Positions 1,680 to 56,773 of a stretch of 64,000 nt of DNA are shown here, piece after piece. Source of the stretch: Candidatus Nomurabacteria bacterium (GTDB lineage Bacteria; Patescibacteriota; Minisyncoccia; Phycocordibacterales; UBA9973); the NCBI GenBank assembly GCA_943354905.1, contig CALRDL010000001.1, positions 29,520 to 93,519 of the forward strand, given 5' to 3'. A model generated the notes under the pieces. The model saw nothing but the letters and a program-made list of their open reading frames with translations. It did not search any database and was not told the origin of the DNA. Position numbers and translations under genes: made by a program. How positions within the stretch are numbered: the stretch's first letter is position 1; every line of letters starts with the position of its first letter.

Positions 1680-1843
1680 AAGTTGCAACCCGCACAAAAT
1701 TGTACTTGTGGTCAGGAATAATTTTTTAGTCGTCACTAAAAAATTTTCACGACCCTGCCTCAGTTGTTTTGTTTACTAACAAAACATACTTCCGGCTCAC
1801 ACAAGCTGGAAAAAATCTAAAGCAGTTTAAATTTTTTCGCTTG

Positions 1844-1916
1844 TGCGCCCAGTTGGAATCGAACCAACGACCTTATCCTTAAAAGGGATCTGCTCTACCA
1901 GCTGAGCTATAGGCGC
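1844..1916 (-). tRNA. tRNA-Lys (anticodon UUU)
   Basis: The reverse complement is GCGCCTATAGCTCAGCTGGTAGAGCAGATCC-CTTTTAA-GGATAAGGTCGTTGGTTCGATTCCAACTGGGCGCA. It folds as a cloverleaf with anticodon loop CUUUUAA. CCA is not encoded. Confidence 0.8.
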
Positions 1917-2021
1917 ATATATATTTAGTTTTTAAACAAAACTTATCTTAATAATAATCCATCGACCTACCAAAACAGCTATAGGCGCATAAGTAGCATA
2001 GTAACACATTTTTTTAAAAAT

Positions 2022-3534
2022 TCCAGTAAATAGCTCGTAACCCCTCACACCCCTAAATACTCCAAAAAGAAATTATCCTGAAATCGTTGTTTCATAGACA
2101 TTAAAACTGAAAGCAGTACCGCCAGATTATCAGCCGTTCTTTTAGTCAAAGAGCCGAAAGATATTTTGCGTTTTAAGACAAGATGTCGGAGCGATCTCTC
2201 CGCTTGATTGTTAGTCAAGGGAATTCTAAGGTCAGAAAGACAAGTCAGATATTTAGAAATGTTTTTTGCGAGGGTTGTCTTAATCCGAATCAATTTCTTT
2301 GGATCAAGTCGTTTGATTTCTGAGAGTTCATTTAGTTTCAAAGAAAATTCATCATATCGTTCAATTCTTCTATCGTTTTTCAATTCATCATAAATCAAAC
2401 ATAATCTTTGGTACTCAGCCTTGCAATGCAGTCTGGTTTTTTCATCAAGCTCGCTTGATTTGGCAAGATCTCTAAACTTTCTAATCAGATGAGCGAAGCA
2501 TAATTGATGTCTACTTAACTTTCTGTAGACTCCGTAATCATCTGACACTACAAAACCGTTAAAGTCTTCTCCAACTAAGCTTTCCATATTACCTTTACCT
2601 CTTGATTCTCCCACCAGAAAAACACTTTCTTTGGATTCTCCACCACTCATCACCCAAGAGTAACTTGTATCTCCGCCAATGAATATTTTCCAGCTTGTTT
2701 CGTCCAAATGAATGACGGGTTCTCCACGTATTTTCACTTTCAATTGTTCGTAAAAAGGTCGCAGTTTGATTGCTTCTCTTTCTAATATTTTAGCGATTTC
2801 TCCTTGGGATATGTGAATTTGGTATGTGTCTTTTAGAATTTCCTGTATTTGAGAAAAAGAAAGCCTGCACATTACAGACAAGTAGCAGGTGTATTTTTGA
2901 ATATTTGAACCAAGAATGACCTTACAAGGTGGCAGTGGAATACTCGTCTGCCATTTTTTGCAATTGGAACAGTATGATTTTTCAACTACGTGTTTTGTAA
3001 CAATTTTCTTGGCAGGAATCGGAATATCTTCTTCGTAGAAAATTATCGTTTTCTTTTTGACTGTTTTCTCTCCGCAGGAACATTAATCGAGCGGATGGTG
3101 TTTGATTTCGGTTAATTCGTTTTCTTTGGGTATCAGTCTTTTATATGAATCGTTTGTTCTTGGTATTTTTTCTTTTGGAGGTGTTAAATCCTCATCATCA
3201 ATTTCTTCTTTTTTCTTTTTCTTTCCAAAAACCATTACTCGGAGCTCTTCAATTTGAAGTTTAAAGTCCTCGATGGTTTTAGACAAAGATTCATTGGTTA
3301 AGCGAAGCAGTTGGTTTTCTTCTTTTAGTAACTTGATTTCTTCTTCTAAAAATCCGACTCTTCTTTTTTGTTGCGTATGCAACCTTTCTAGATTTTGCAA
3401 ACGAATTAATCGTTTTTTAATCTCTATTTTAGACAATCCAGCCTTGGACATATCTATATATTACCATTGTTTTGTAGTGGTTTCTTTAGAGTTATCCACA
3501 TTGGGGTGTGAGGGGTTACAATAGCTCTATACAG
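2022..3534 (-). mobile_element. IS66-family insertion sequence, ~1.5 kb, with a degenerate transposase
   Basis: Terminal inverted repeats: ccagtaaatagctcgtaacccctcacacccc at 2022-2052 and ggggtgtgaggggttacaatagctctatacag at 3503-3534 share the 17-nt core ggggtgtgaggggttac in inverted orientation. The interior encodes IS66-type transposase motifs. Confidence 0.6.
2045..3451 (-). pseudogene. IS66-family transposase (TnpC-like), split into two ORFs by frame disruption
   Basis: ORF 3083-3451 is a coiled-coil leucine-zipper N-terminus. The 2882-3082 gap carries a CxxC zinc finger in another frame. ORF 2045-2881 contains HLDETSWK (the DET motif), YSWVMSG, a DDYGVY region and CFAHLIRKF (the CwAHxRRKF signature). 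Confidence 0.6.
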
Positions 3535-4069: not shown

Positions 4070-4762
4070 CTAAAAAACTTTTAATAAAAATCTCTCGAAA
4101 GCACTCTCAGCATCAAGTCCAACACTGCGAGCTTCGGGTAAAAGATAACTCAGTTTTTTAGAGATATCTATAAGTTCTTTTTTAGAAAACTTATGAAAAT
4201 CTCCCGCCCGAACGGCCGAACTCATTCGGTCGGGCGGGTTTTTCAAGATCATATCTTTTATTTTCCAGAACAGTATCCCTATCAGCTCTTCCATCACCAC
4301 CCCTTTATCCACTGCTTGCCTAAAATAAATCCAAAGATTTATCTTGTCTTTTTGTCCAAAAGCATCGGCCAGTAAAAAATTGTTGAATTTCTCTTTTTTT
4401 TCTTTTGATAATGCGAACATATTTATCTCCGCCCGAGCTTTTTTAAAAGCATCCAGTATTGGCTTATTTAATTTCCCTTCCAAAAAGATGAAAGAATTTT
4501 TTGATTCACCCATGAATGTCAATTTTTCTAAAATAAATTCCTCACTATCTTCACTGATTTCATTGGCTAAAACGTTTTCTAAAATTATATTTGAAAGAGG
4601 AGAAAACATACTGTAACCAGAATACAGGCTTTCTATCTCCATTTTATTAAAATTATTTCTATTTACAAAAAAAGTTTGAGCCTCACTTTCTATAGACTTT
4701 AGAAATTTCTCATAACTCGTCCGTTTAGCTTTGGCATCATCTCCAGTAAAAAGATATATCAT
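4070..4762 (-). CDS. holA: DNA polymerase III delta subunit-like (short form)
   Basis: The MIYLFTGDD... N-terminus is typical of HolA. Length is 230 aa. Contains an in-frame Family A palindrome. Confidence 0.5.
   Translation of the reverse strand: MIYLFTGDDAKAKRTSYEKFLKSIESEAQTFFVNRNNFNKMEIESLYSGYSMFSPLSNIILENVLANEISEDSEEFILEKLTFMGESKNSFIFLEGKLNKPILDAFKKARAEINMFALSKEKKEKFNNFLLADAFGQKDKINLWIYFRQAVDKGVVMEELIGILFWKIKDMILKNPPDRMSSAVRAGDFHKFSKKELIDISKKLSYLLPEARSVGLDAESAFERFLLKVF
4203..4238. repeat. Family A palindromic element (CCCGCCCGAAC...TCGGGCGGG), in frame in holA
   Basis: Sequence cccgcccgaacggccgaactcattcggtcgggcggg, translated as ...MSSAVRAGDF... Confidence 0.65.
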
Positions 4763-4777
4763 AGTTTAATTTATGGT

Positions 4778-5245
4778 CTAAAATTTAACTCGATGTATAT
4801 ATTCGATATAGGCACTGCCATATTTTTCAGCTAGAATTCTCTGATGTTTGCCCATAAATACGAATTTGGAAATAAAAAAAGCGAGAACAGTAAAAATAAT
4901 TACAAAAAATGAGTTGGTAATTATTCCAAAACCAAGTAAGAGAATAAAGAGTCCCAATTGGGTAGGTATCTGAGTATAGTAATACGGTCCACGACAAAAA
5001 TGTTCAGCTTTTAATTCTTGCCTGATTTCTCTAAAATCTCTTCCAGTTTTCTGGGCCCAGATGATCAAAATAGTCGCTAGCATCAAGAAAACAAACCCGA
5101 CTGGAACCATCACAAAATAATTAAAAATCTTAAAATCAAAAATAATATCGAGTATTATCCCAACCAGAAGCAAAATGAAATAAACCAAATAAGAATGGGC
5201 CAGCGTATGGTGTACAGTGTGCTTTTTTAGCTCTTGATCTTCCAT
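4778..5245 (-). CDS. Isoprenylcysteine carboxyl methyltransferase / phospholipid methyltransferase family membrane protein
   Basis: Multi-transmembrane protein with RGPYYYTQIPTQLG and EKYGSAYIEYIHRVKF at the C-terminus, characteristic of the ICMT/PEMT family. Confidence 0.5.
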   Translation of the reverse strand: MEDQELKKHTVHHTLAHSYLVYFILLLVGIILDIIFDFKIFNYFVMVPVGFVFLMLATILIIWAQKTGRDFREIRQELKAEHFCRGPYYYTQIPTQLGLFILLLGFGIITNSFFVIIFTVLAFFISKFVFMGKHQRILAEKYGSAYIEYIHRVKF

Positions 5246-5305
5246 TGCTAGAGTATAACATAATATTTATAATTTCTTTCCTAAAGAGACGAGAATATGA
5301 CTTTT

Positions 5306-7858
5306 TTACGAAGTATTGGAATTCGATGAATTTAATTTCAAGACAATAACTTCATTAATAAGTTCTAAATCATCCATCATAGTTTGAGTAGCTCCCACTC
5401 TAGCACAAAGCATATAATCTTGCATAGATTTTACTACCCAAACTTGTGATTGAAGTCCTTTTTTGTTCAACTCATATACAATTTTACGAAATGATTCCTC
5501 GCCCCATTTATTCATTGCAAATTGCATCAAAGAAACAACTTTGGCATTGATCTGTGGTGCATAGTGGTTAATATATTCTAAAAATATATCTGGCATTAAA
5601 TCTGTATCCATCAATCCATAAGCCATTAAATAATTTACAGTTTCGACAGTGTTGAGCTCAAAAGGTAATGTGGGTTCTAGTTTATGAATACGTTCAACAA
5701 CATCACCTGATCCGGAGGTCATTAAAATATTATTAATAGGTGTCTGGCTATTGCGTATTATATCAACAAGTTCCTTTTCCCCCACCCCAATAGAATATTT
5801 TACATCAATCTTAATTGTAGTTTGATAATTATCTTTCTTGTGATATTTCCCTATTAAATCTAAAGCTTCTTCTAAAGACAAAAGGCTCTCGCCTGTGAGA
5901 TCTCCATCGACTGTACGAATGTATACATTTTTTAAATCTTCCCAAGTTTTCTCAATCGTTAGCCCGGTTGCATTTGTTGTGAGGTCTAATTTTATATCAT
6001 GAGAAACCACCCACTTACCATCCTTGGTGGGAACAACATCTATTTCAATAGTGTTTATATTTCTTTCGAGAGCTGCGAGAAAACTTGCTCGAGAATTTTC
6101 AGGGAAGCCACCAACAGTTTCGTGTATAGATATTCCACCGTGAGCGACGATGTCTGGTAGTTTTCCTTCACGTGATTCATTCTCTACTTCATTTTTATCA
6201 ACAAAAGGATCCTCTTGGTTTTTAAAAGGTTTATTAGTAAAACTCACCCATACTTTTCGCATTTGTTTAATAATTTCTTCCTTACAAATTTGCTTATTTT
6301 GTTCGTCAGCGTGATAATATTCTTCCATTAATATCTTGACGGAAATTGCAATATTGTGTTGAAATTTATCATATGCATACAAACGTTTTGCAAAGGGTTT
6401 ATCTTGGACATCTGGTTTTATAATAAAATTACATTGATTTGGTAAAGGTCGCCAATAAATATCTTCAAATTTTATTTGATCAAAATATGAACCAGTGTGT
6501 AAATCAAAACATCTAAGAGATCCGTTGGATAGCTTGACCATATTTATAGTCTGAAGTGGTAAATCAGGTTTATTATATTGCACTGGCATAATTTTAACTT
6601 CAAGCCCCAATAATTTTCCAAAAATAAAAGGAATAATGTAGTTGAGGTAACTTCTATCACCATCAAAATTAGCTCTAATATGAGTTAGAACTTCCATAAA
6701 TTCGCCTAGAATCTGGCATTCGATTTTTGTCATTTCCTCAACAGATAATTCAAAACGACTCTCAAGCATTTTTTTCCATCCCAACAGCTTAGATGACTCC
6801 TTGTCCCATTTTATAATTGCTTTCAACATATCAGAAGACTTTTTTCTCACTAATTCAGGAAAACCTAAAAATTCCTTGCTGAGTTTATTGAGTTGTATTG
6901 GTTTTGTTCTATTTCGGTCAATAATTCCTGTAGATGACATCCATTCAGGAGCTAGATCGTGTCTAATAGCTGGCAAAACTTTTGTCTCTCCACCTTTTTC
7001 AACTACCTTACTCATTTCTTCTTTCACACTAACACTGTCGACATCCTTTTCCGTTTTTACATACACAATAGCTGGTAATTGTTCTAATATAGATAGAATA
7101 TTATCGGTATTAAATGCAGAAACATGGTCAACTATATTCAGACTAGCTAACACTTGCAACCTTTCAACTAATGGGTGTATTGGACGATCTCCATTCTTGT
7201 TTTTATTTTGTAAAGATACTGAATAATCACTATTTACTAAAATTATAATAATGTCGCCTACTTTTTTAGCTTGCTCAATAAAATTTATATGTCCTTCGTG
7301 AACCACATCAAAAACACCCCCTATTACAACAACTTTTTTTCCACTAGTTTGATATTGTTGAACAAGATCTGGTAAATCTATTTCTGGTATAAATTTATCA
7401 TTAGAAATACTGTCTTGTTCATATCTATTTAAATATGGAGATTTTTTCTCTCTTCTTATTCTTTCCACAGTCACTTTATCTATTCCTTCATTTACAAAAT
7501 AGGTATTGCTATAAAGAGAAAAGGGGTTGTTTTTTAGCGTAAAATCTTCTTCTCCACTACTGTTAGTTCTAATAATACCAGAAATACATTCTATGTGAGA
7601 AATAAAATGATCCACTCTTTGGCTTTCTCTAAAATCATTCAGAGAGTTAGGATCGTGAACATTAATATAGACAGGTAGATTTTTATCAGCTAGTTTGTGT
7701 AAAAAAGTTATGAGACGCATATCTAGTTGATCCATCTTTTCTATTTCTAGATATGTTATTTCTCCTCTTTCTATTTTCAACAACGCTTCAGCTGGAGACA
7801 AATATCTTTCAGGGTTATGCCTCATAAATTCATAAATATTGTTTTGTGGATTTTCCAT
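5306..7858 (-). CDS. Multidomain protein: N-terminal cytidylyltransferase-like domain (HxGH), uncharacterised middle region, C-terminal glycerophosphodiester phosphodiesterase (GDPD) domain
   Basis: KKVVVIGGVFDVVHEGHINFIEQAKKVGD matches the GxFDxxHxGH nucleotidyltransferase motif. VAHGGISIHETVGGFPENSRASFLAALERNINTIEIDVVPTKDGKWVVSHD matches the GDPD signature. Confidence 0.6.
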   Translation of the reverse strand: MENPQNNIYEFMRHNPERYLSPAEALLKIERGEITYLEIEKMDQLDMRLITFLHKLADKNLPVYINVHDPNSLNDFRESQRVDHFISHIECISGIIRTNSSGEEDFTLKNNPFSLYSNTYFVNEGIDKVTVERIRREKKSPYLNRYEQDSISNDKFIPEIDLPDLVQQYQTSGKKVVVIGGVFDVVHEGHINFIEQAKKVGDIIIILVNSDYSVSLQNKNKNGDRPIHPLVERLQVLASLNIVDHVSAFNTDNILSILEQLPAIVYVKTEKDVDSVSVKEEMSKVVEKGGETKVLPAIRHDLAPEWMSSTGIIDRNRTKPIQLNKLSKEFLGFPELVRKKSSDMLKAIIKWDKESSKLLGWKKMLESRFELSVEEMTKIECQILGEFMEVLTHIRANFDGDRSYLNYIIPFIFGKLLGLEVKIMPVQYNKPDLPLQTINMVKLSNGSLRCFDLHTGSYFDQIKFEDIYWRPLPNQCNFIIKPDVQDKPFAKRLYAYDKFQHNIAISVKILMEEYYHADEQNKQICKEEIIKQMRKVWVSFTNKPFKNQEDPFVDKNEVENESREGKLPDIVAHGGISIHETVGGFPENSRASFLAALERNINTIEIDVVPTKDGKWVVSHDIKLDLTTNATGLTIEKTWEDLKNVYIRTVDGDLTGESLLSLEEALDLIGKYHKKDNYQTTIKIDVKYSIGVGEKELVDIIRNSQTPINNILMTSGSGDVVERIHKLEPTLPFELNTVETVNYLMAYGLMDTDLMPDIFLEYINHYAPQINAKVVSLMQFAMNKWGEESFRKIVYELNKKGLQSQVWVVKSMQDYMLCARVGATQTMMDDLELINEVIVLKLNSSNSNTS

Positions 7859-8015
7859 AGATCTTTATATTATTTATTGTATCCAATACAACCCCAACTA
7901 GAAGCAAAATAAAATAAACCGAGTAAGAATGGGCTAGCAGGTGGTGTACAGTATGCTTTTTTGTACTTTCGTCCTTCATGGCTTGATTATAACATAATAA
8001 ATTATTTGATTTCAT
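7830..8015 (-). pseudogene. Duplicated 5' fragment of the ICMT-like gene (pseudo-N-terminus)
   Basis: ...KKHTVHHLLAHSYSVYFILLLVGVVLD is about 80% identical to residues 8-40 of ORF 4778-5245. The DNA at 7880-8000 matches 5130-5250. Confidence 0.5.
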
Positions 8016-8016
8016 A

Positions 8017-8047
8017 CACGGGTGAGGGCTTTAGACTCTCACTGAGG
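8017..8047. repeat. REP-like palindrome overlapping the RAYT stop codon
   Basis: Sequence cacgggtgagggctttagactctcactgagg. Its reverse complement matches the CTCAGTGAGAG-TCTAAAGC-CTCTCACTGAG consensus. Confidence 0.6.
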
Positions 8048-8713
8048 CAATTCATCTGGCTCTTGCAATGAAGTACAGCCTCGTTCTTCTCGAATAATAG
8101 ATATTATTTCTTTGCAATGTTCTTTTAAATTATTTTTTCCTTGAAAAACTTCCAACATGCTCTGCCCTTCTTTTTTAGAAACAAAGTTAAAAAGTCCACT
8201 ATCATATTCCTTATCACTAGAAAATATAAAATGAAGCTTACTTTTCGGCATATCATGTACTAAATAATTTTGATTGACATACCCAAATGTTTTTCTAAAA
8301 TAATTATCGTTTTTAATTAATTTAGATTTAAATGTTCCTTGAAATAAAGAACCTGAACGCTTATTTTTTTCATTAAAGTAAGAAGTATACCCGCCTTGGA
8401 ATTTTTGCATAAATTTTGATATCCCACCATCTACTAATTGTTTTAAAAGAAAATGAAAATGATTTGGATTAATACAAAAAGCAACAATAGCAACAAGTGG
8501 TTCTTTCTTGATTCGCGGGTGAGGTTCTAAAGCCCTCTCTGAGATAGACTTGTAGTACATTTCTAAACTTCCTATCGCCTCAACTTGATTAAACTGTTTT
8601 ATACTTTCCTTAAAGCGTTCCAGATCTTTCAGATCACCGAAAATATCACGCTTATCTACACCTCTATTATATATATGATAATACTCCCCTGTTACGAGTG
8701 GCTCTTTTCTCAT
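8039..8713 (-). CDS. REP-associated tyrosine transposase (RAYT, IS200/IS605 Y1-transposase-like)
   Basis: YHIYNRGVDKRDIF is near the N-terminus. The HuH motif NPNHFHFLL is present, followed by the region GGYTSYFNEKNKRSGSLFQGTFKSKLIKNDNYF, which resembles the catalytic-Tyr segment of the RayT family. Confidence 0.7.
   Translation of the reverse strand: MRKEPLVTGEYYHIYNRGVDKRDIFGDLKDLERFKESIKQFNQVEAIGSLEMYYKSISERALEPHPRIKKEPLVAIVAFCINPNHFHFLLKQLVDGGISKFMQKFQGGYTSYFNEKNKRSGSLFQGTFKSKLIKNDNYFRKTFGYVNQNYLVHDMPKSKLHFIFSSDKEYDSGLFNFVSKKEGQSMLEVFQGKNNLKEHCKEIISIIREERGCTSLQEPDELPQ
8515..8552. repeat. REP-like copy inside the RAYT coding sequence
   Basis: Sequence cgcgggtgaggttctaaagccctctctgagata. 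Confidence 0.5.
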
Positions 8714-8727
8714 ATATTTAGTATATC

Positions 8728-8758
8728 ACAATGAGAGTCTAAAGCTCTCACTGAGATA
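8728..8758. repeat. REP-like palindrome upstream of the RAYT start
   Basis: Sequence acaatgagagtctaaagctctcactgagata. Confidence 0.6.
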
Positions 8759-8760
8759 CA

Positions 8761-9297
8761 TTAGATCTTTGTTATCTCATAAAAATACCTCCAAGGCTTA
8801 TTTGGTAGAGGATGTTTTGACACTTTTAATGATTCATTTTTTTGCAATGTTTGTAAAAACGGTTCGTATTCTTCATTTATGTTACCTACGCTTTCAATAA
8901 TTAATATTTTCCCATCTATTTTAATAACTCTCAATGCTTCATTCATAAAATCCTGAGTTCTTCCCTCTACCCTATCGGCATTCAAAATATTTGTAAAAGC
9001 TAATTCATCAACTGATCCATCAGGAAAGGGAAGACTTCCTGCATCTGCCCTTATAACTATAGCCTGATAATCCCCCTTCGAACTTTCAATTCCTTTCTTA
9101 ACAGTATAAGTTTTATGCCGCTCCAACTCAACAGCATAGTATTTGTCTCCTGTTTGTGGAAGTTTTCCAGCAGGTGAATTTTCATGAATACTAGGATTCT
9201 CCCCAACACCAATTTCTACAACCACTCTTTTTGGTTGTGTCTCGAGTTTATCTACTGGACCCTGCACTGATATTTTAGTTGGGCCTGATTCGTCCAT
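8761..9297 (-). CDS. Putative class I SAM-dependent methyltransferase
   Basis: VVVEIGVGENP resembles methyltransferase motif I. Length is 178 aa. No stronger signature. Confidence 0.4.
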   Translation of the reverse strand: MDESGPTKISVQGPVDKLETQPKRVVVEIGVGENPSIHENSPAGKLPQTGDKYYAVELERHKTYTVKKGIESSKGDYQAIVIRADAGSLPFPDGSVDELAFTNILNADRVEGRTQDFMNEALRVIKIDGKILIIESVGNINEEYEPFLQTLQKNESLKVSKHPLPNKPWRYFYEITKI

Positions 9298-9333: not shown

Positions 9334-9364
9334 CTAGTGAGGGTCTAAAGCGCTCACTGAAATA
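9334..9364. repeat. REP-like palindrome
   Basis: Sequence ctagtgagggtctaaagcgctcactgaaata. Confidence 0.6.
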
Positions 9365-9367
9365 TCT

Positions 9368-11977
9368 TTATTTCACTTCCCCAAAATTGTCTCCGGAGCC
9401 TGAGTGGACTATGAGCGGGATGTCGGTCTTGTATTCTAAATACGATCTCGAAAGAACCGTTTGCATAGCATTTTTAATTATCTTTTCTGCTTGGTCTAAA
9501 ACTCCTTCTTCGACTTCGTACACGAGTTCATCATGAATCTGCAAAACTAGATGCACTCTATCAAGTAGGCCAGCACTTTTCAAATCTTCATGAGAATATC
9601 TGATGGCTAGTTTAATAATGTCGGCGGTGGCTGTGCCCTGGATGGGTGCATTTGTGGCTGTACGCTCGGCCATGTTTTTCAAAAATGGAATCCTAGAATT
9701 TATATTTGGAAAATATCTCCGCCGTCCAAACAAAGTTTCCGTAAAACCATTTTTAGTGACATCAACTTTTACTTTTTCTAAATAATCTCGCACCCCAGAG
9801 AATTGATTGAAATAATTATCATAAAACTTTTGGGCTTCTTCTCTAGTTCCACCCAAATTTTTCCGCAGAGAGGAAACTCCCATACCATAAATAATTCCGA
9901 AGTTTATTACCTTAGCCTTGCGACGCATTTCGTGGTCAACTTTGTCGATAGGCACTCCAAAAACAAAAGACGCCACTCCAGAATGAATATCTTTCCCCTC
10001 TTTGAAAATCTCAGTCATTTTTTTATCTCCAGAAAGCATCGCTGCGACACGCAACTCTATCTGACTATAATCAAAAGTACAAAGCTTGTAACCCTTTTGG
10101 GCTATAAAACCTGCTCGAATCCTCTTGCCGAGCTCGGATTTTATTGGAAGATTTTGTAAGTTTGGATCGATAGAAGAAAACCTACCGGTGGTAGTAGCAT
10201 TTTGTAAAAATTTAGAATGAAGTCTATTATCTACTCCGACCATTTTTGGAATCACATCGATATATGTCGAAAGCAATTTTTGAAGTTCTCGATAAGAAAG
10301 TATTTCTGTAATAATCGGATTTTCTTCTTCAAGTTCTTCAAGAACTGAAACTTTAGTAGATAAATTTCCACTGGCTCCTTTTTTCTTGGACTTCATCCCC
10401 ATCTTCTCAAAGAGAACAACGCCTAATTGCTTCGGGGAATTAATGTTAAATTCCGTACCAGCCATTTCATATATTTTTTTGGTTAAAATATCTAGTTCAA
10501 TATGATATTCTTTTGAGAGTTTTTCAAAATATTTTTGATCGAGCATTATGCCGTGATCTTCCATCTCTTTGACTATAGGAATTATTGGATGCTCGATCTC
10601 TTCATAAACTTTTTCAAGTTTTTTTTCACTCAATTTCTTAAAAACATATTCGCGAGCTTTTTCGAAATCACTTGTATTGGCCTGCCCGACTGAATAGTCG
10701 TTCGGGCGGGAGAAATTTAAAATATCCTCCAAGCTTGGATTGGAGATATCAGAGTTCACTAGCCAGAGAGCTATGCTGGTTTCTTGAAGCTTAAGAGGAT
10801 CCGCAGGAAGACGCTCGGGAATAGCAGAATACGAATTTAGCAGAATTTTCTCGGGTCCTCGGGTCGCCCCTAGGATTCTCCGTCGGGGCTCAACCAGACC
10901 AGCTCGAAAATTCTCTAAATTCGTATTCTGCTGACTTGAAAAAAAACTTTTCAATCTTGAAAACAAAGACCTAAATTCAAAGAAATTAAATATTTGTTCA
11001 ATTTTTTTAAAATCTGCATTTTCCCAAAAAGTTTTTTCTGGAATTTTAAAATTGATCGGTGCATCTCTGCGTATTGTCGCTAAAGTTTTCGAAAAAAGTG
11101 CTTCTTCTTCGTTGTTTTTTAAAAGCTCAATCATCCGTGGACTAATACCCGCTTTTAAAAAATCTTCATCCCCGCCCGAACGACCGTCCGGTCGGGCGGG
11201 TTTTTTTAATTTTTTATAAATATCTTCGATGGTTCCAAATTTACTGATTAAAATTTCTGCAGTTTTTTCGCCTATGCCTTTGATGCCGATGATATTGTCT
11301 GACGGATCTCCGCGAAGTCCCTTGTAGTCTGGCAAAAAAACCGGTTTAAAATTAAAACGTTCTACGACTTTTTCTTCATCATACAAAATAGTGTCGTTAA
11401 TACCTTTTTTAAGAGTGTAGACTTGAACCTTTTTATCATCGATGAGTTGCATCGTATCCATATCTCCGGAAGCAATGATGATATTTATACCCCCTCCGCC
11501 CTTCGTCAAGCTCAGGGTACCTCCCCTATTTTTGGAGGGGACATAGGGGGAGGTCAAGTGGGGGCGCAATTGCGCCACTATAGTACCAAGCACATCATCC
11601 GCCTCGAAACCCGGTGCATCATAAATCGGAATATTAAAAGCTTCGAAGATTTGGCGAGAATTTTTTAGTTGCGTTATGAGAGCTTCATCGGTCTTGGCTC
11701 TCCCTTTTTTATATCCATCATAAGCCTCATGCCGAAAAGTTTTTTGTGGTAGATCATAACAAGCCACGATATAGTCTGGCTTCAAATCTACAATGATCTT
11801 CATCAACATTGTAGACAACCCATACAAAGCCCCAGTCGGCTCACCTTTAGAAGATAGAAAGTCGGGAAGGGCATGATAGGCTCGATGAATTATCGCGTGC
11901 GAATCCAAAAGGACTAAAGTTTTGGGCTGTTTACTATTTTGCTCATTTTCTTTAATTTCTTTAGTTTCTTTGGACAT
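9368..11977 (-). CDS. polA: DNA polymerase I (5'-3' exonuclease plus polymerase domains)
   Basis: 869 aa. The N-terminus LVLLDSHAIIHRAYHAL and the C-terminus ...RVHLVLQIHDELVYEV with YGMG and IIKLAI motifs fit PolA. It hosts three in-frame palindromic inserts. Confidence 0.9.
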   Translation of the reverse strand: MSKETKEIKENEQNSKQPKTLVLLDSHAIIHRAYHALPDFLSSKGEPTGALYGLSTMLMKIIVDLKPDYIVACYDLPQKTFRHEAYDGYKKGRAKTDEALITQLKNSRQIFEAFNIPIYDAPGFEADDVLGTIVAQLRPHLTSPYVPSKNRGGTLSLTKGGGGINIIIASGDMDTMQLIDDKKVQVYTLKKGINDTILYDEEKVVERFNFKPVFLPDYKGLRGDPSDNIIGIKGIGEKTAEILISKFGTIEDIYKKLKKPARPDGRSGGDEDFLKAGISPRMIELLKNNEEEALFSKTLATIRRDAPINFKIPEKTFWENADFKKIEQIFNFFEFRSLFSRLKSFFSSQQNTNLENFRAGLVEPRRRILGATRGPEKILLNSYSAIPERLPADPLKLQETSIALWLVNSDISNPSLEDILNFSRPNDYSVGQANTSDFEKAREYVFKKLSEKKLEKVYEEIEHPIIPIVKEMEDHGIMLDQKYFEKLSKEYHIELDILTKKIYEMAGTEFNINSPKQLGVVLFEKMGMKSKKKGASGNLSTKVSVLEELEEENPIITEILSYRELQKLLSTYIDVIPKMVGVDNRLHSKFLQNATTTGRFSSIDPNLQNLPIKSELGKRIRAGFIAQKGYKLCTFDYSQIELRVAAMLSGDKKMTEIFKEGKDIHSGVASFVFGVPIDKVDHEMRRKAKVINFGIIYGMGVSSLRKNLGGTREEAQKFYDNYFNQFSGVRDYLEKVKVDVTKNGFTETLFGRRRYFPNINSRIPFLKNMAERTATNAPIQGTATADIIKLAIRYSHEDLKSAGLLDRVHLVLQIHDELVYEVEEGVLDQAEKIIKNAMQTVLSRSYLEYKTDIPLIVHSGSGDNFGEVK
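10681..10710. repeat. Family A palindromic element, in frame in polA
   Basis: Sequence cctgcccgactgaatagtcgttcgggcggg. Confidence 0.6.
11171..11200. repeat. Family A palindromic element, in frame in polA
   Basis: Sequence cccgcccgaacgaccgtccggtcgggcggg, translated as KKPARPDGRSGGDE. Confidence 0.65.
11491..11577. repeat. Family B compound palindromic element, in frame in polA
   Basis: Sequence ccccctccgcccttcgtcaagctcagggtacctcccctatttttggaggggacatagggggaggtcaagtgggggcgcaattgcgcc, translated as ...PYVPSKNRGGTLSLTKGGGG... Confidence 0.65.
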
Positions 11978-54106: not shown

Positions 54107-55141
54107 TTAAAAGGCTTCGATTTTCACCTGAGCCCCGGCTTTTTTTAGCCGGTTTTCAAGGTACTTGAGCCCCTTTTCCATCAGCGCTGGTCGTGAGACC
54201 GGGAGCGGATGGAGGTGGACAGTGAGTCCTTTCAAGTTGAGTGCGCCGATGTCGGCGATCTGGTCTAACTTTGACCAGTTCGCCTCCTCAAGAAGCTCTG
54301 GGTTTTTGTAAACCGAGGCTTCAGGAAGATTTTCGAGCCCATCTGTAAAAATGTGGAGCTTAGGACGTGAGTCCTTGTTCTCCATCATTTCTTTTAGGAT
54401 GGGCATGAGGCCACGCAGGACGGAGCTCTTGGGCTTTGCTTTCCCTTCCACTAGCCAGTCTGTGCTGGCTTTTACTTCGGCTTCCATACCAAGATTTGGA
54501 CGTTGCCGTCCCCCTTGGTAAGGGTCCTCGGAAATGTGATATAGGTTAAGCGCGATTTTGTTTTTGCCGTCAGCTCCGAGCTGTACGGCTCGGGTCTCGT
54601 CAACAATCTGACGAACCCGTTTGGCTAAGTCGTCACTGACACCCTCGGTGGTGTCGAGCGCGACTCCAAACGCCCGCTTGATCGCGACCGGGCCGGTGAA
54701 GGCCTCGATCGCTTTTGCCAATTCGGGCTGGGAGCCGGTGAGCTCTTTCCTCCGATTCGGCCGGGTCGTTTGCTCGAACTTTAGCCAGCCTTTCAGCTGG
54801 AAAATGTTCGAGGATAGGATCTTGTCACCGTCCTTTGTGACGAAGGTCAGTTTCAGTCCATACCCACCCGGCTCTTCCGGCGTGGGGCGTTCGGCGCCGT
54901 AGCGTTTGAGGCTTTTGGCGCTGAACTTCTTTGATTCTTGCAAGAAGATGTCCGTTAAGCGGACACCTTCCGTGGAAACGAGGGTGCTGGCGTCGATCGC
55001 CAACCCCCCGTCCGCTTCGACTTCCCGTTCGAAAACGAGGAAGTCTTCTTTGGGGGTGTACTTCTCCCCCCAAAGGAACATCGTGAGTCCGATCGCCGCA
55101 GCCAGTATGGCTACGGACGACAGGACCAGTTTTTTGTTCAT
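54107..55141 (-). CDS. GC-rich hypothetical exported protein, possibly vWA-like
   Basis: N-terminal anchor LVLSSVAILAAAIGLTMFLW. PKLHIFTDGLEN resembles a vWA segment. Assignment weak. Confidence 0.45.
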   Translation of the reverse strand: MNKKLVLSSVAILAAAIGLTMFLWGEKYTPKEDFLVFEREVEADGGLAIDASTLVSTEGVRLTDIFLQESKKFSAKSLKRYGAERPTPEEPGGYGLKLTFVTKDGDKILSSNIFQLKGWLKFEQTTRPNRRKELTGSQPELAKAIEAFTGPVAIKRAFGVALDTTEGVSDDLAKRVRQIVDETRAVQLGADGKNKIALNLYHISEDPYQGGRQRPNLGMEAEVKASTDWLVEGKAKPKSSVLRGLMPILKEMMENKDSRPKLHIFTDGLENLPEASVYKNPELLEEANWSKLDQIADIGALNLKGLTVHLHPLPVSRPALMEKGLKYLENRLKKAGAQVKIEAF

Positions 55142-55162
55142 TGCTTCTGTTCCTTTCCGCCC

Positions 55163-56773
55163 CTAGAACTTAGGGGCCCTCCACGCTTTTACCGGCGCGG
55201 GGGCGGGTGGTGGTGGAGGTGCGGGTTTTGCAACCTCAAGGGCCGCTTTCTCCGCCTCCGCTTTTTTTCCTGCAATCAGTTCTTCCGTGATTTTTGCAAG
55301 GGTTTTTTCCGTTTCCGCTATCGTCATGACGCGGACTGAAATGTTTTCGTTTGCCGGCGTCGTCGTGACGGCTTCCATGTCGGCGATAAGGCCGGCAGGG
55401 AGATCGATCGAGAACACCGGCTTGTTGGCGTTGAAATTGGCGACGAGTTCGTCGTCGCTTTCCGTTGAGTTGCTGGTTCTTGCCACCATTTTTTCAATGG
55501 CTTCGCCGAATTCATCGACGAACCACTTGGGTGACTGGCCGAACTCATGTGCGAGCCGGCGAATCGTGGCGATGCCGTGGTTGTGGGTCTCTTTGGCTTC
55601 TTTTGCCAGCGCGAGCTGGTGCTGGAATTCTGTGTGGTAGACATTGTAAGCGCCCTGTGCGTCCGGAGACGTGACAGTCGCTTCCAATTCCACTAACTGC
55701 TTTGCCAACGCTTCCGCCTCTACCTTCTTGGCCATGGCGGACTCGGCTTGCGGGTGGGTGGTGGTTGAAAACACCGCTTCCCAAGCGTACAATACCGCGA
55801 ACACTAACACTACACCAAACGATCCGGCGATGTCGCCAGTCTGAGTCATCATAACCCAGCGGATGCCGAGGGTTCCGAGGATAGTCATGGCCATTAGCCA
55901 GAACCACATCCTGTGCTTAAACTCCGCGTCGCCAGACAGAGTGAAAACCGAGACTGACTTACCCGTCAAGGGGTCTACCCCGTTCGGAAAAGTTTCTCTC
56001 AGTTGCTGAGTAGCGTTGCAAAGGTCGAGTTCCACCTTCATGGCGGAACCAGCGAAGTAGGTGGTTATGGATCCCGCCATGCTCACTAGGAGCGAGAAGG
56101 CGAGGGCCATCGATTGGTTTCCTTGGTCTTGAAGTATTGGTGCGTTGAACACCACTTCAAAAAACAAGGATATCGCGAATGCCGCGGTCACGGGGAGCCA
56201 AGATGCTGGTCCAGTTTCCGGAGCATTGATTGCGAGGTTTGGGTTGCCGTTGATGCCGATTGCCAACCGGCGTGCCTCAAGGAAGGCATCTTTTGCCTTG
56301 ACCTGGAGGGTGTCGATGGCGGCGAGGCCCGCCTGGGCGAAGCCTTTTAGCTTGCTGGCGAAGTCCGTGGTGAGTTGGTTGGGGTTCGGTGTTGGCACAT
56401 CCTGTGCCTGACGAACCTTTTGAATCGCGTTGCCGAGCGTCTGCTCGGCAAAGGCTTTGTATCCAGCGAAGAGATCGCTGAACATCTGGGCCACTTCTTC
56501 GAACAGAACCGATATTTGACCCGGGGCATACGTGCCCCCGAGCCCCTCTACTGCCTGGACGAGTGCTGGCATGTGCGGGGTGACGACGACCTGAGGGTCG
56601 AGGGTTACCACACTTCTAACGACGGGCTGGATGTTGTTGTTTTCGGTCACTGCGGCCGGAGCCGAGGTGCCGATTTTTAAGGACGTAGTGCCCCGTCCGG
56701 GCACCAGCTGGAGCAGTCGCCTGCTCCAGCTTTTGAGTTTTTCTCTCATTTTTTTTACCTTTTCTTTTGTCAA
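55163..56773 (-). CDS. GC-rich hypothetical membrane protein with four predicted transmembrane helices and a poly-Pro C-terminus
   Basis: 536-aa ORF with transmembrane segments at ~200-330. C-terminal PAPPPPPAPAP. Confidence 0.45.
   Translation of the reverse strand: MTKEKVKKMREKLKSWSRRLLQLVPGRGTTSLKIGTSAPAAVTENNNIQPVVRSVVTLDPQVVVTPHMPALVQAVEGLGGTYAPGQISVLFEEVAQMFSDLFAGYKAFAEQTLGNAIQKVRQAQDVPTPNPNQLTTDFASKLKGFAQAGLAAIDTLQVKAKDAFLEARRLAIGINGNPNLAINAPETGPASWLPVTAAFAISLFFEVVFNAPILQDQGNQSMALAFSLLVSMAGSITTYFAGSAMKVELDLCNATQQLRETFPNGVDPLTGKSVSVFTLSGDAEFKHRMWFWLMAMTILGTLGIRWVMMTQTGDIAGSFGVVLVFAVLYAWEAVFSTTTHPQAESAMAKKVEAEALAKQLVELEATVTSPDAQGAYNVYHTEFQHQLALAKEAKETHNHGIATIRRLAHEFGQSPKWFVDEFGEAIEKMVARTSNSTESDDELVANFNANKPVFSIDLPAGLIADMEAVTTTPANENISVRVMTIAETEKTLAKITEELIAGKKAEAEKAALEVAKPAPPPPPAPAPVKAWRAPKF

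Follow-up and report, generated by a model that had tools for sequence, protein, structure and literature searches.

An accessory gene between two diverged copies of an ICMT-like 5' end in a Candidatus Nomurabacteria genome: an apparent scar of recombination between related lineages

One homologous anchor combined with one microhomology joint can trap foreign DNA (PMC5361080, citing PMC122325 and PMC122324). Such homology-facilitated illegitimate recombination (HFIR) has been described for natural transformation in Streptococcus pneumoniae, Acinetobacter, and Pseudomonas stutzeri and has been invoked for the orphan immunity-gene arrays found in type VI secretion system clusters of Vibrio cholerae and for Rhs loci. 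In PMC5361080, the observation that copies within the same genome were less alike than copies across genomes served as an argument against duplication. Here, we analyzed a 64,000-nucleotide (nt) stretch (the window) of contig CALRDL010000001.1 from a Candidatus Nomurabacteria bacterium (assembly GCA_943354905.1, positions 29,520 to 93,519), in which a gene of 850 amino acids (aa), here called the cargo gene, lies between two direct copies, A and B, of the 5' end of an ICMT/PEMT-like membrane methyltransferase gene. The event recorded at this locus is a known kind of recombination scar, ordinary but well resolved.

The locus resembles the HFIR cases in several respects. The apparently foreign DNA adjoins a conserved gene able to serve as a homologous anchor, one joint lies inside putatively resident sequence with a few bases of microhomology at most, and a stump of what would be the displaced resident gene remains. 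Furthermore, the resemblance between copies A and B, which share a genome, is weaker than that of copy B to the ICMT gene of the closest related lineage (L012). It differs from those cases in that it is read from sequence alone in an uncultured member of the Patescibacteria, in that either copy may be the resident one, and in that the stump keeps a complete predicted promoter and start codon, which would have made the event non-disruptive. The elements of the bracket are as follows, where ORF stands for open reading frame:

5146 to 5265, minus strand: repeat copy A, a predicted 20-nt promoter (extended -10 TGTTATACT at 5260-5252; ATG at 5245, 6 nt further downstream) and codons 1 to 33 of the intact ICMT/PEMT-like gene (BLASTN, sequence, motif scan)
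5266 to 5305, minus strand: spacer of 40 nt from the cargo stop to copy A, not repeated
5306 to 7858, minus strand: cargo gene, 850 aa, with an HldC/TagD-like nucleotidyltransferase domain at residues 175-313 and a GDPD domain at residues 582-831 (Pfam, NCBIfam, PDB sequence search, Foldseek)
7859 to 7879, minus strand: junction spacer of 21 nt from copy B to the cargo ATG (alignment of A, B, L012, L016, and L017)
7880 to 7999, minus strand: repeat copy B, a predicted promoter (perfect extended -10 TGTTATAAT at 7994-7986; ATG at 7979, 6 nt further downstream) and codons 1 to 33 of an apparently truncated, L012-type ICMT allele
7830 to 8015, minus strand: 61-aa ORF starting with the ATG at 8015, 49 aa if started at the homologous ATG at 7979, the ICMT stump being read through into 16 unrelated codons

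The two copies form one ungapped BLASTN alignment with 94 of 120 identical positions (78%; E = 4e-26 for the pairwise comparison and 7e-24 against the whole window), and BLASTN against the whole window found no third copy in the 64 kb. A repeat search of the window retrieved the same pair, extended to 5127-5265 and 7861-7999 at 76% identity. Each copy comprises the 20 nt located 5' of the ATG and the first 100 coding nt (33 codons) of the ICMT/PEMT-like gene; copies A and B are identical over the first 12 nt of the repeat and agree at 17 of the 20 positions 5' of the ATG. A chance or low-complexity match was rejected, the next best matches in the window having E values of at least 8e-4 over 25 nt. 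Likewise, the repeat is not a conserved promoter motif alone, since 100 of its 120 nt are coding. An assembly artifact was rejected as well because independent public contigs agree with the layout: a Logan contig (L001, 8,748 nt) is 100% identical over the whole locus, and an ENA contig (L002), covering the part from the 850-aa gene through ICMT to the holA-like gene, has 2 mismatches.

A preliminary description of this DNA had reported a direct repeat of about 120 bp at 5130-5250 and 7880-8000, with about 80% identity, consisting of the promoter and the first 40 or so codons of the ICMT-like gene. Both BLASTN and the self-comparison of the window bear out the two direct copies, their location, and the nature of their content; one end had been placed approximately 15 nt off, and the coding part is shorter by several codons. 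The short ORF that was said to arise from the repeat does exist in the ORF list, although its ICMT-homologous start lies within it, and the multidomain gene does lie between the copies, set off by the two short spacers listed above. After codon 33, the ORF of the stump departs from the ICMT frame, and it shares 29 nt with the start of the cargo gene, which is read in a different frame. No Pfam match was obtained for the 61-aa ORF, and it was not called as a gene in public contig L001. In the spacer at 5266-5305, no terminator-like site was found.

The genes surrounding the bracket are, like all genes of the locus, encoded on the minus strand. Their order of transcription, based on the ORF list and family searches, is PolA, small methyltransferase, RAYT-like gene, short ORF, 850-aa gene, ICMT/PEMT-like gene, and holA-like gene:

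9368 to 11977, minus strand: DNA polymerase I (PolA), the conserved left border of the hot spot
8761 to 9297, minus strand: small class I methyltransferase, 178 aa (Pfam Methyltransf_11), in the variable stretch between PolA and ICMT
8039 to 8713, minus strand: RAYT-like Y1 transposase, 224 aa (Pfam Y1_Tnp, E = 1e-9, 38.9 bits with a cut-off of 23)
4778 to 5245, minus strand: intact ICMT/PEMT-like membrane methyltransferase, 155 aa (Pfam PEMT, E = 1e-4)
4070 to 4762, minus strand: holA-like gene (DNA polymerase III delta), the conserved right neighbor of ICMT (NCBIfam holA, E = 1e-5, below the cut-off; synteny)

Comparison with 50 related loci, including 47 GTDB species representatives, supports an insertion of the 850-aa gene between RAYT and ICMT in this lineage, because the relatives keep the core gene order without this gene and four of them have RAYT directly before ICMT. 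The order PilB(-), PolA, ICMT, holA-like was present in all 47 species representatives, and neither the 850-aa gene nor a second ICMT 5' end was found at the locus in any of the 50 relatives. In about 40 of them, PolA directly precedes ICMT with a gap of less than 170 nt. This is the arrangement in L004 and in the closest relative, L012 (PolA 94% identical at the amino acid level, holA-like 91%, ICMT 83%), where the PolA stop lies 23 nt before the ICMT ATG. A RAYT gene (72-79% identical) stands directly before ICMT in L008, L021, L022, and L037, with ICMT starting 59-77 nt after it. The order in L008 is PolA, a different methyltransferase, RAYT, and ICMT, and its RAYT stop lies 59 nt from the ICMT ATG. 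As exactly the same distance separates the RAYT stop of the window (8039) from the copy B ATG (7979), copy B appears to occupy the native position. The preliminary description had read the bracket as the footprint of an insertion or recombination event and had suggested looking in relatives for ICMT adjoining RAYT without the 2.5-kb gene. That arrangement is found in the four relatives named above, and the footprint is supported by the synteny; a bracket of both copies shared with relatives, which would have spoken for a conserved feature, was seen in none of the 50. A search for closer relatives by means of PolA returned none above 77% identity besides the window itself, the PolA of L012 being only partial.

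About 10 of the 50 species hold inserts of 0.4-3.9 kb with varied genes in the gap between PolA and ICMT, which by this comparison is a recurrent site of gene gain. Inserts were seen in L019, L021, L022, L024, L029, L033, L037, L038, and L008, with RAYT, a DapF-like ORF, and membrane proteins among their contents. A 220-aa ORF on the opposite strand is common to the gaps of L019 and L029.

The relationship between copies A and B was assessed over codons 1-33, with the ICMT sequences of L012, L016, and L017, the three lineages closest to the window, included. Identity and synonymous divergence (dS) in the principal comparisons were as follows:

B to L012: 88 of 99 nt, 30 of 33 third positions, dS 0.20
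A to B: 76 of 99 nt, 22 of 33 third positions, dS 0.70
A to L012: 78 of 99 nt, 21 of 33 third positions, dS 0.82

Copy B matched L016 at 81 and L017 at 79 of the 99 nt. The distance of copy A to B and L012 (dS 0.7-1.1) is as large as that between unrelated lineages. In bootstraps, the nearest neighbor of B was L012 in 94% and A in 0.1% of the replicates, and the nearest neighbor of A was B in 2.4%. Site patterns relative to L012 assign 16-17 changes uniquely to A, 8 synonymous ones among them, and 5-7 uniquely to B. The similarity of B to L012 also stands out against the rest of the locus, where no 33-codon window of PolA, ICMT, or holA reaches 30 of 33 third positions in the comparison with L012 (maximum, 28; binomial P = 3e-4). 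The ratio of nonsynonymous to synonymous divergence (dN/dS) of B to L012 is approximately 0.5, and B carries a non-conservative change, T14L, at a conserved position; judged from these substitutions, constraint on B is relaxed, as expected for a stump. A search for the B/L012-type allele by its degenerate codon pattern (peptide HSYSVYFILLLVGVV) gave no matches in genome and metagenome contigs.

By these comparisons, copies A and B are homeologous alleles of different lineages, apparently joined by recombination, and no fresh duplication, because the stump is the less diverged copy and is sister to L012, whereas a decaying duplicate should be more diverged and sister to its source. The preliminary description, which spoke of a duplication of the gene's 5' end, was thus right about the presence of two direct copies and mistaken about the sense in which they are duplicates.

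The reading that we favor, at about even chances, is HFIR of the "insertion-deletion" type with DNA of a related lineage. In such an event, recombination with the DNA of another, related lineage would have placed the accessory 850-aa gene within the conserved gene row PolA-(RAYT)-ICMT-holA. The donor fragment would have carried the cargo gene and, downstream of it, the donor's ICMT allele with its promoter. It would have paired homologously on the ICMT 3'/holA side, and its other end would have been joined illegitimately within the resident ICMT gene at codon 33-36 (approximately 7872-7880), whereby resident ICMT codons 34-155 would have been replaced by the donor fragment. Copy B would then represent the resident stump (promoter plus 33 codons), and copy A would belong to the allele brought in together with the cargo. 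In favor of this reading, a single event of a documented type would explain everything. At the putative illegitimate joint (approximately 7872-7880), ICMT homology ends at codon 33-36, and only GATA.AAT-type microhomology to the ICMT continuation is present.

The assignment of B as the resident copy is consistent with several comparisons to the closest lineages. The holA segment of the window is 88% identical to L012 at the nucleotide level vs 72-74% to L016, and copy B groups with L012, as holA does. Whole ICMT-A is equidistant, with 82% identity to both L012 and L016. Relative to L012, the density of mismatches is 18.6% in ICMT and 11.9% in holA (P = 0.054; 168 nt of L012 holA), and this drop at the ICMT/holA border would fit a second crossover located near the ICMT stop.

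Several observations weigh against HFIR with B as the resident stump. The microhomology at the joint is indistinguishable from what chance would produce in AT-rich DNA, and among the database homologues of the cargo no donor carrying it directly upstream of ICMT was found. Statistically, the decrease in divergence from ICMT to holA is no more than marginal, and the dS of holA to L012 (56 codons) is intermediate at 0.6. The 3' end of PolA (422 codons) shows a dS of 1.24 to L012, close to that of ICMT-A (1.0-1.1) and far from that of B (0.2); should PolA reflect the resident background, A would be resident and B the import. All close comparisons rest on short contigs (1.9 kb for L012, 0.8 kb for L016, and 0.6 kb for L017). 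Adjacent segments at dS 0.2, 0.6, and 1.2 to L012 indicate a mosaic, recombining lineage group, and as the group appears to be mosaic, a 1.9-kb comparison is limited in what it decides. Either of the two copies may have been the resident one.

The opposite direction is implied by a Campbell-type single crossover ("insertion-duplication"), which we regard as possible and on balance rather unlikely. Here, circular DNA with the cargo gene and a 120-nt L012-like ICMT 5' fragment would have crossed over in the shared promoter stretch TATTATGTTATA, making B the imported and A the resident copy. The textbook product of integrating the clone of a 5' fragment is a truncated 5' copy, the insert, and an intact gene with its promoter, which is exactly the layout observed. 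Furthermore, the coding part of B is L012-like (dS 0.2), with A, PolA, and the rest of ICMT all at dS 1.0-1.24 to L012, the identical first 12 nt of the repeat and the 17 of 20 matches upstream would provide the site of exchange, and the 59-nt spacing between RAYT and the ATG would be kept automatically. However, two rare steps would be required, namely, a circularization in which ICMT codon 33 would have been joined illegitimately to the cargo start and then a crossover in 12-20 nt of identity within DNA that is 78% identical over only 120 nt, and the copies would have to be near-pure donor and resident types. The 2.6-kb insert has no replicon, integrase, or attachment (att)-like feature, and neither the circle nor a donor was found in the databases searched with the cargo. 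The dS of 0.6 in holA and the tree positions (B with L012 like holA, A equidistant) also fit B being resident.

Irrespective of direction, both copies show the same promoter architecture, in which the end of an extended -10 element (TGTTATAAT for B, TGTTATACT for A) lies 6 nt from the ATG; in a promoter scan, the copy B site had 10 of 12 matches plus the TG. The same arrangement of -10 and ATG occurs in the ICMT genes of L012, L016, and L017 and in the RAYT, PolA, and methyltransferase genes. Among the 40 window ORFs of at least 150 aa, a -10 hexamer (at least 5 of 6 matches, often with TG) ends 4-10 nt before the start in 18, compared to 5% at random positions, and a Shine-Dalgarno-like core was found in 2. 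It is thus likely that the 20 nt preceding the ATG form a complete leaderless promoter, and as this unit is contained in each copy, ICMT would have stayed functional after the event. The stump would likewise position a strong predicted promoter upstream of the cargo gene, at a distance of 121 nt.

Retention of the stump for its usefulness, as a promoter of the cargo gene or as a single-helix membrane peptide of 49 aa, would be compatible with any of the origins considered here. We consider such retention unlikely. Of the predicted promoters at the locus, the one in copy B (TGTTATAAT) is the best, leaderless starts dominate the genes of the window, the -10 elements upstream of the cargo gene itself are weaker (AATAAT or TAATAT, without TG), and the ORF is open for 49 codons and encodes one hydrophobic helix. 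On the other hand, the dN/dS of approximately 0.5 and the non-conservative change at a conserved site speak against retention, the ORF runs out of frame across the cargo start, and a homologous short ORF was present in none of the relatives. A frameshift fusion of the stump helix to the cargo was considered and set aside, no slippery site having been seen.

The RAYT-like gene immediately upstream of the bracket had been noted in the preliminary description as the neighbor of the footprint. This adjacency holds, and it does not extend to a link with the joints. A REP-like palindrome (GAGGGTCTAAAGCNCTCAC) occurs four times in the 64 kb (8022-8040, 8521-8539, 8733-8751, and 9339-9357; the copy at 8022 is listed on the minus strand), compared to 0.02 copies expected by chance, and all four lie at the RAYT locus. 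The copy at 8022 is located between RAYT and copy B, and another lies inside the RAYT ORF. Together, the palindromes separate PolA, the methyltransferase, RAYT, and the ICMT stump from one another, with inverted copies at 8022-8044 and 8729-8751 flanking the RAYT gene. As in described RAYT/REP loci, inverted REP-like palindromes lie on either side of a Y1_Tnp gene that is present in a single copy and occupies the same site in several related species. Unlike those loci, only 4 REPs are present in 64 kb, one of them inside the RAYT ORF, the protein scores below the NCBIfam RAYT cut-off (REP_Tyr_transpos, 35.5 bits with a cut-off of 80), and no cargo joint lies at a REP. The nearest palindrome is 22 nt upstream of copy B and approximately 140 nt from the joint at 7872-7880, and there is none on the downstream side of the cargo. 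There is no support for the joints having been made by RAYT or by REP hairpins. The RAYT orthologue of L008 is 72% identical to that of the window, although the adjacent methyltransferases are unrelated: the 178-aa methyltransferase has no counterpart in L008, which has an unrelated 270-aa methyltransferase at that place (L008 6403-7215).

A possible parallel was found in L022, where a stump of the polA 3' end (GNNFREVK*; true end, GNNFGEVK*; 22 of 27 nt) follows the RAYT cassette, 51 nt before ICMT (L022 approximately 5023-5085 and 4263-4330), and the 15-nt promoter TTTTTGTGCTATAAT is found unchanged ahead of RAYT and of ICMT. This scar mirrors that of the window and suggests that one-sided recombination recurs at the PolA-ICMT site. 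The ICMT stump of the window, the polA stump with its duplicated 15-nt promoter in L022, and the varied inserts in about 10 of 50 species together gave rise to the idea that the PolA-ICMT junction is a recombinase-independent "landing pad," at which genes would repeatedly be captured by one-sided homologous recombination and expressed at once via the 20-nt promoter and start codon of a core-gene stump. We regard this generalization as doubtful. In L021, the 44 nt following the polA stop resemble the ICMT promoter plus 7 codons (5766-5809 vs 6970-7016; 75%; MEKENKK vs MEVENKN) and head an unrelated 129-aa membrane ORF. This similarity was rejected as a scar because it is too weak, many genes here starting with ATGGAA.

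Two further explanations fare much worse. An in-place tandem duplication of the ICMT 5' end at cargo insertion (e.g., through staggered breaks or template switching), with the upstream copy having since decayed to 78% identity, would account for direct repeats bracketing an insert, and copy B does carry more amino acid changes than a constrained gene should (the dN/dS and T14L given above). However, A and B are not sisters in the bootstraps, most differences fall on the A branch, including the 8 synonymous ones in the functional copy, and the stump, which should be the more diverged copy, is the less diverged one, all of which makes this origin very improbable.

Target-site duplications are 2-15 nt long and identical, and Y1 (HUH) transposases of the IS200/IS605 type are not known to generate any. 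It is hardly credible that a transposable element, or RAYT acting on REP hairpins, produced the bracket as a target-site duplication: direct repeats do flank the inserted segment, the RAYT-like Y1 transposase gene and its REP palindromes are located just upstream, an IS66-family transposase is encoded approximately 2.4 kb beyond ICMT on the downstream side, and inserts recur between PolA and ICMT, often with RAYT, yet the repeat is 120 nt long and 22% diverged, no terminal inverted repeats are present at 5266 or 7879 (the only nearby pair, of 19 nt and 79% complementary, is offset from the ends), the insert contains no transposase, and REPs are missing from the downstream side of the cargo.

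The cargo protein exceeded the Pfam thresholds in both of its domains (GDPD, 76.5 bits; CTP_transf_like, 47.5 bits). Its AlphaFold model is poor (pLDDT 56), and Foldseek matched only GDPD and HldC folds; for the N-terminal and middle regions, no family was found using Pfam, NCBIfam, PDB sequence search, or Foldseek on this poor model. The family is rare, with about 12 full-length members recovered by exhaustive HMMER among 1.84 billion cluster representatives and a best identity of 45%. No closer homologue was found in the databases, although absence from databases is not evidence of absence. The three homologues whose contexts were examined (L013, L014, and L015) have unrelated neighborhoods (MurI-MurD-X-FtsH; Microgenomates), and none of them adjoins ICMT. 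The GC content of the cargo gene (0.32) and its GC content at third codon positions (GC3; 0.23) are within the range of the window (mean GC3 0.31, standard deviation 0.09) and resemble those of RAYT and the small methyltransferase; base composition is therefore uninformative as a sign of foreign origin. By the ORF list, Pfam, and NCBIfam, the insert is a single enzyme gene, with no replicon, integrase, recombinase, att-like feature, or transposase. A further ENA contig (L003, 719 nt) is identical to the window from inside the last 23 cargo codons on, joining at 5375/5376, and its first 50 nt match nothing in the window or in the loci of relatives; they may be a chimeric contig end or a strain variant.

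The 155-aa ICMT/PEMT-like protein is a small, polytopic membrane protein that scores 23.1 bits against PF04191, below the gathering cut-off of 25. It has 73 homologues in Patescibacteria, several of which are named Ste14/ICMT by their sources, and many homologues with 55-83% identity carry a precomputed PF04191 match. An Rfam scan found no RNA family in or near the locus.

Two other regions of the window were noted. An IS66-family transposase ORF (2045-2881) with a 122-aa coiled-coil-like ORF upstream (3083-3451) adjoins a tRNA-Lys gene (1843-1916), the whole region spanning 1843-3451. At 54107-56773 on the minus strand, two adjacent ORFs of 344 and 536 aa have a GC content of 0.55 and a GC3 of 0.65 in a genome of 36% GC; one has a proline/alanine-rich tail and the other a signal-like helix at its start, no Pfam match was obtained, and the region is not rRNA. 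It may be a foreign island.

Overall, the locus changes no general principle. For annotation, it serves as a reminder that a "duplicated" gene end can be two alleles of different lineages, that promoters in these genomes would be 20-nt leaderless units moving with gene fragments, and that the gap between PolA and ICMT recurrently gains genes. If the landing-pad idea were true, this junction would be functionally integron-like without an integrase. Judging by its two domains, the cargo enzyme could channel scavenged glycerophosphodiesters to an activated CDP- or ADP-linked precursor, and such channeling would merit attention in organisms relying on lipids from a host. The scar would offer a clean, dated example of how a reduced genome of uncultured Patescibacteria gains an accessory gene without a mobile element, readable at base resolution.

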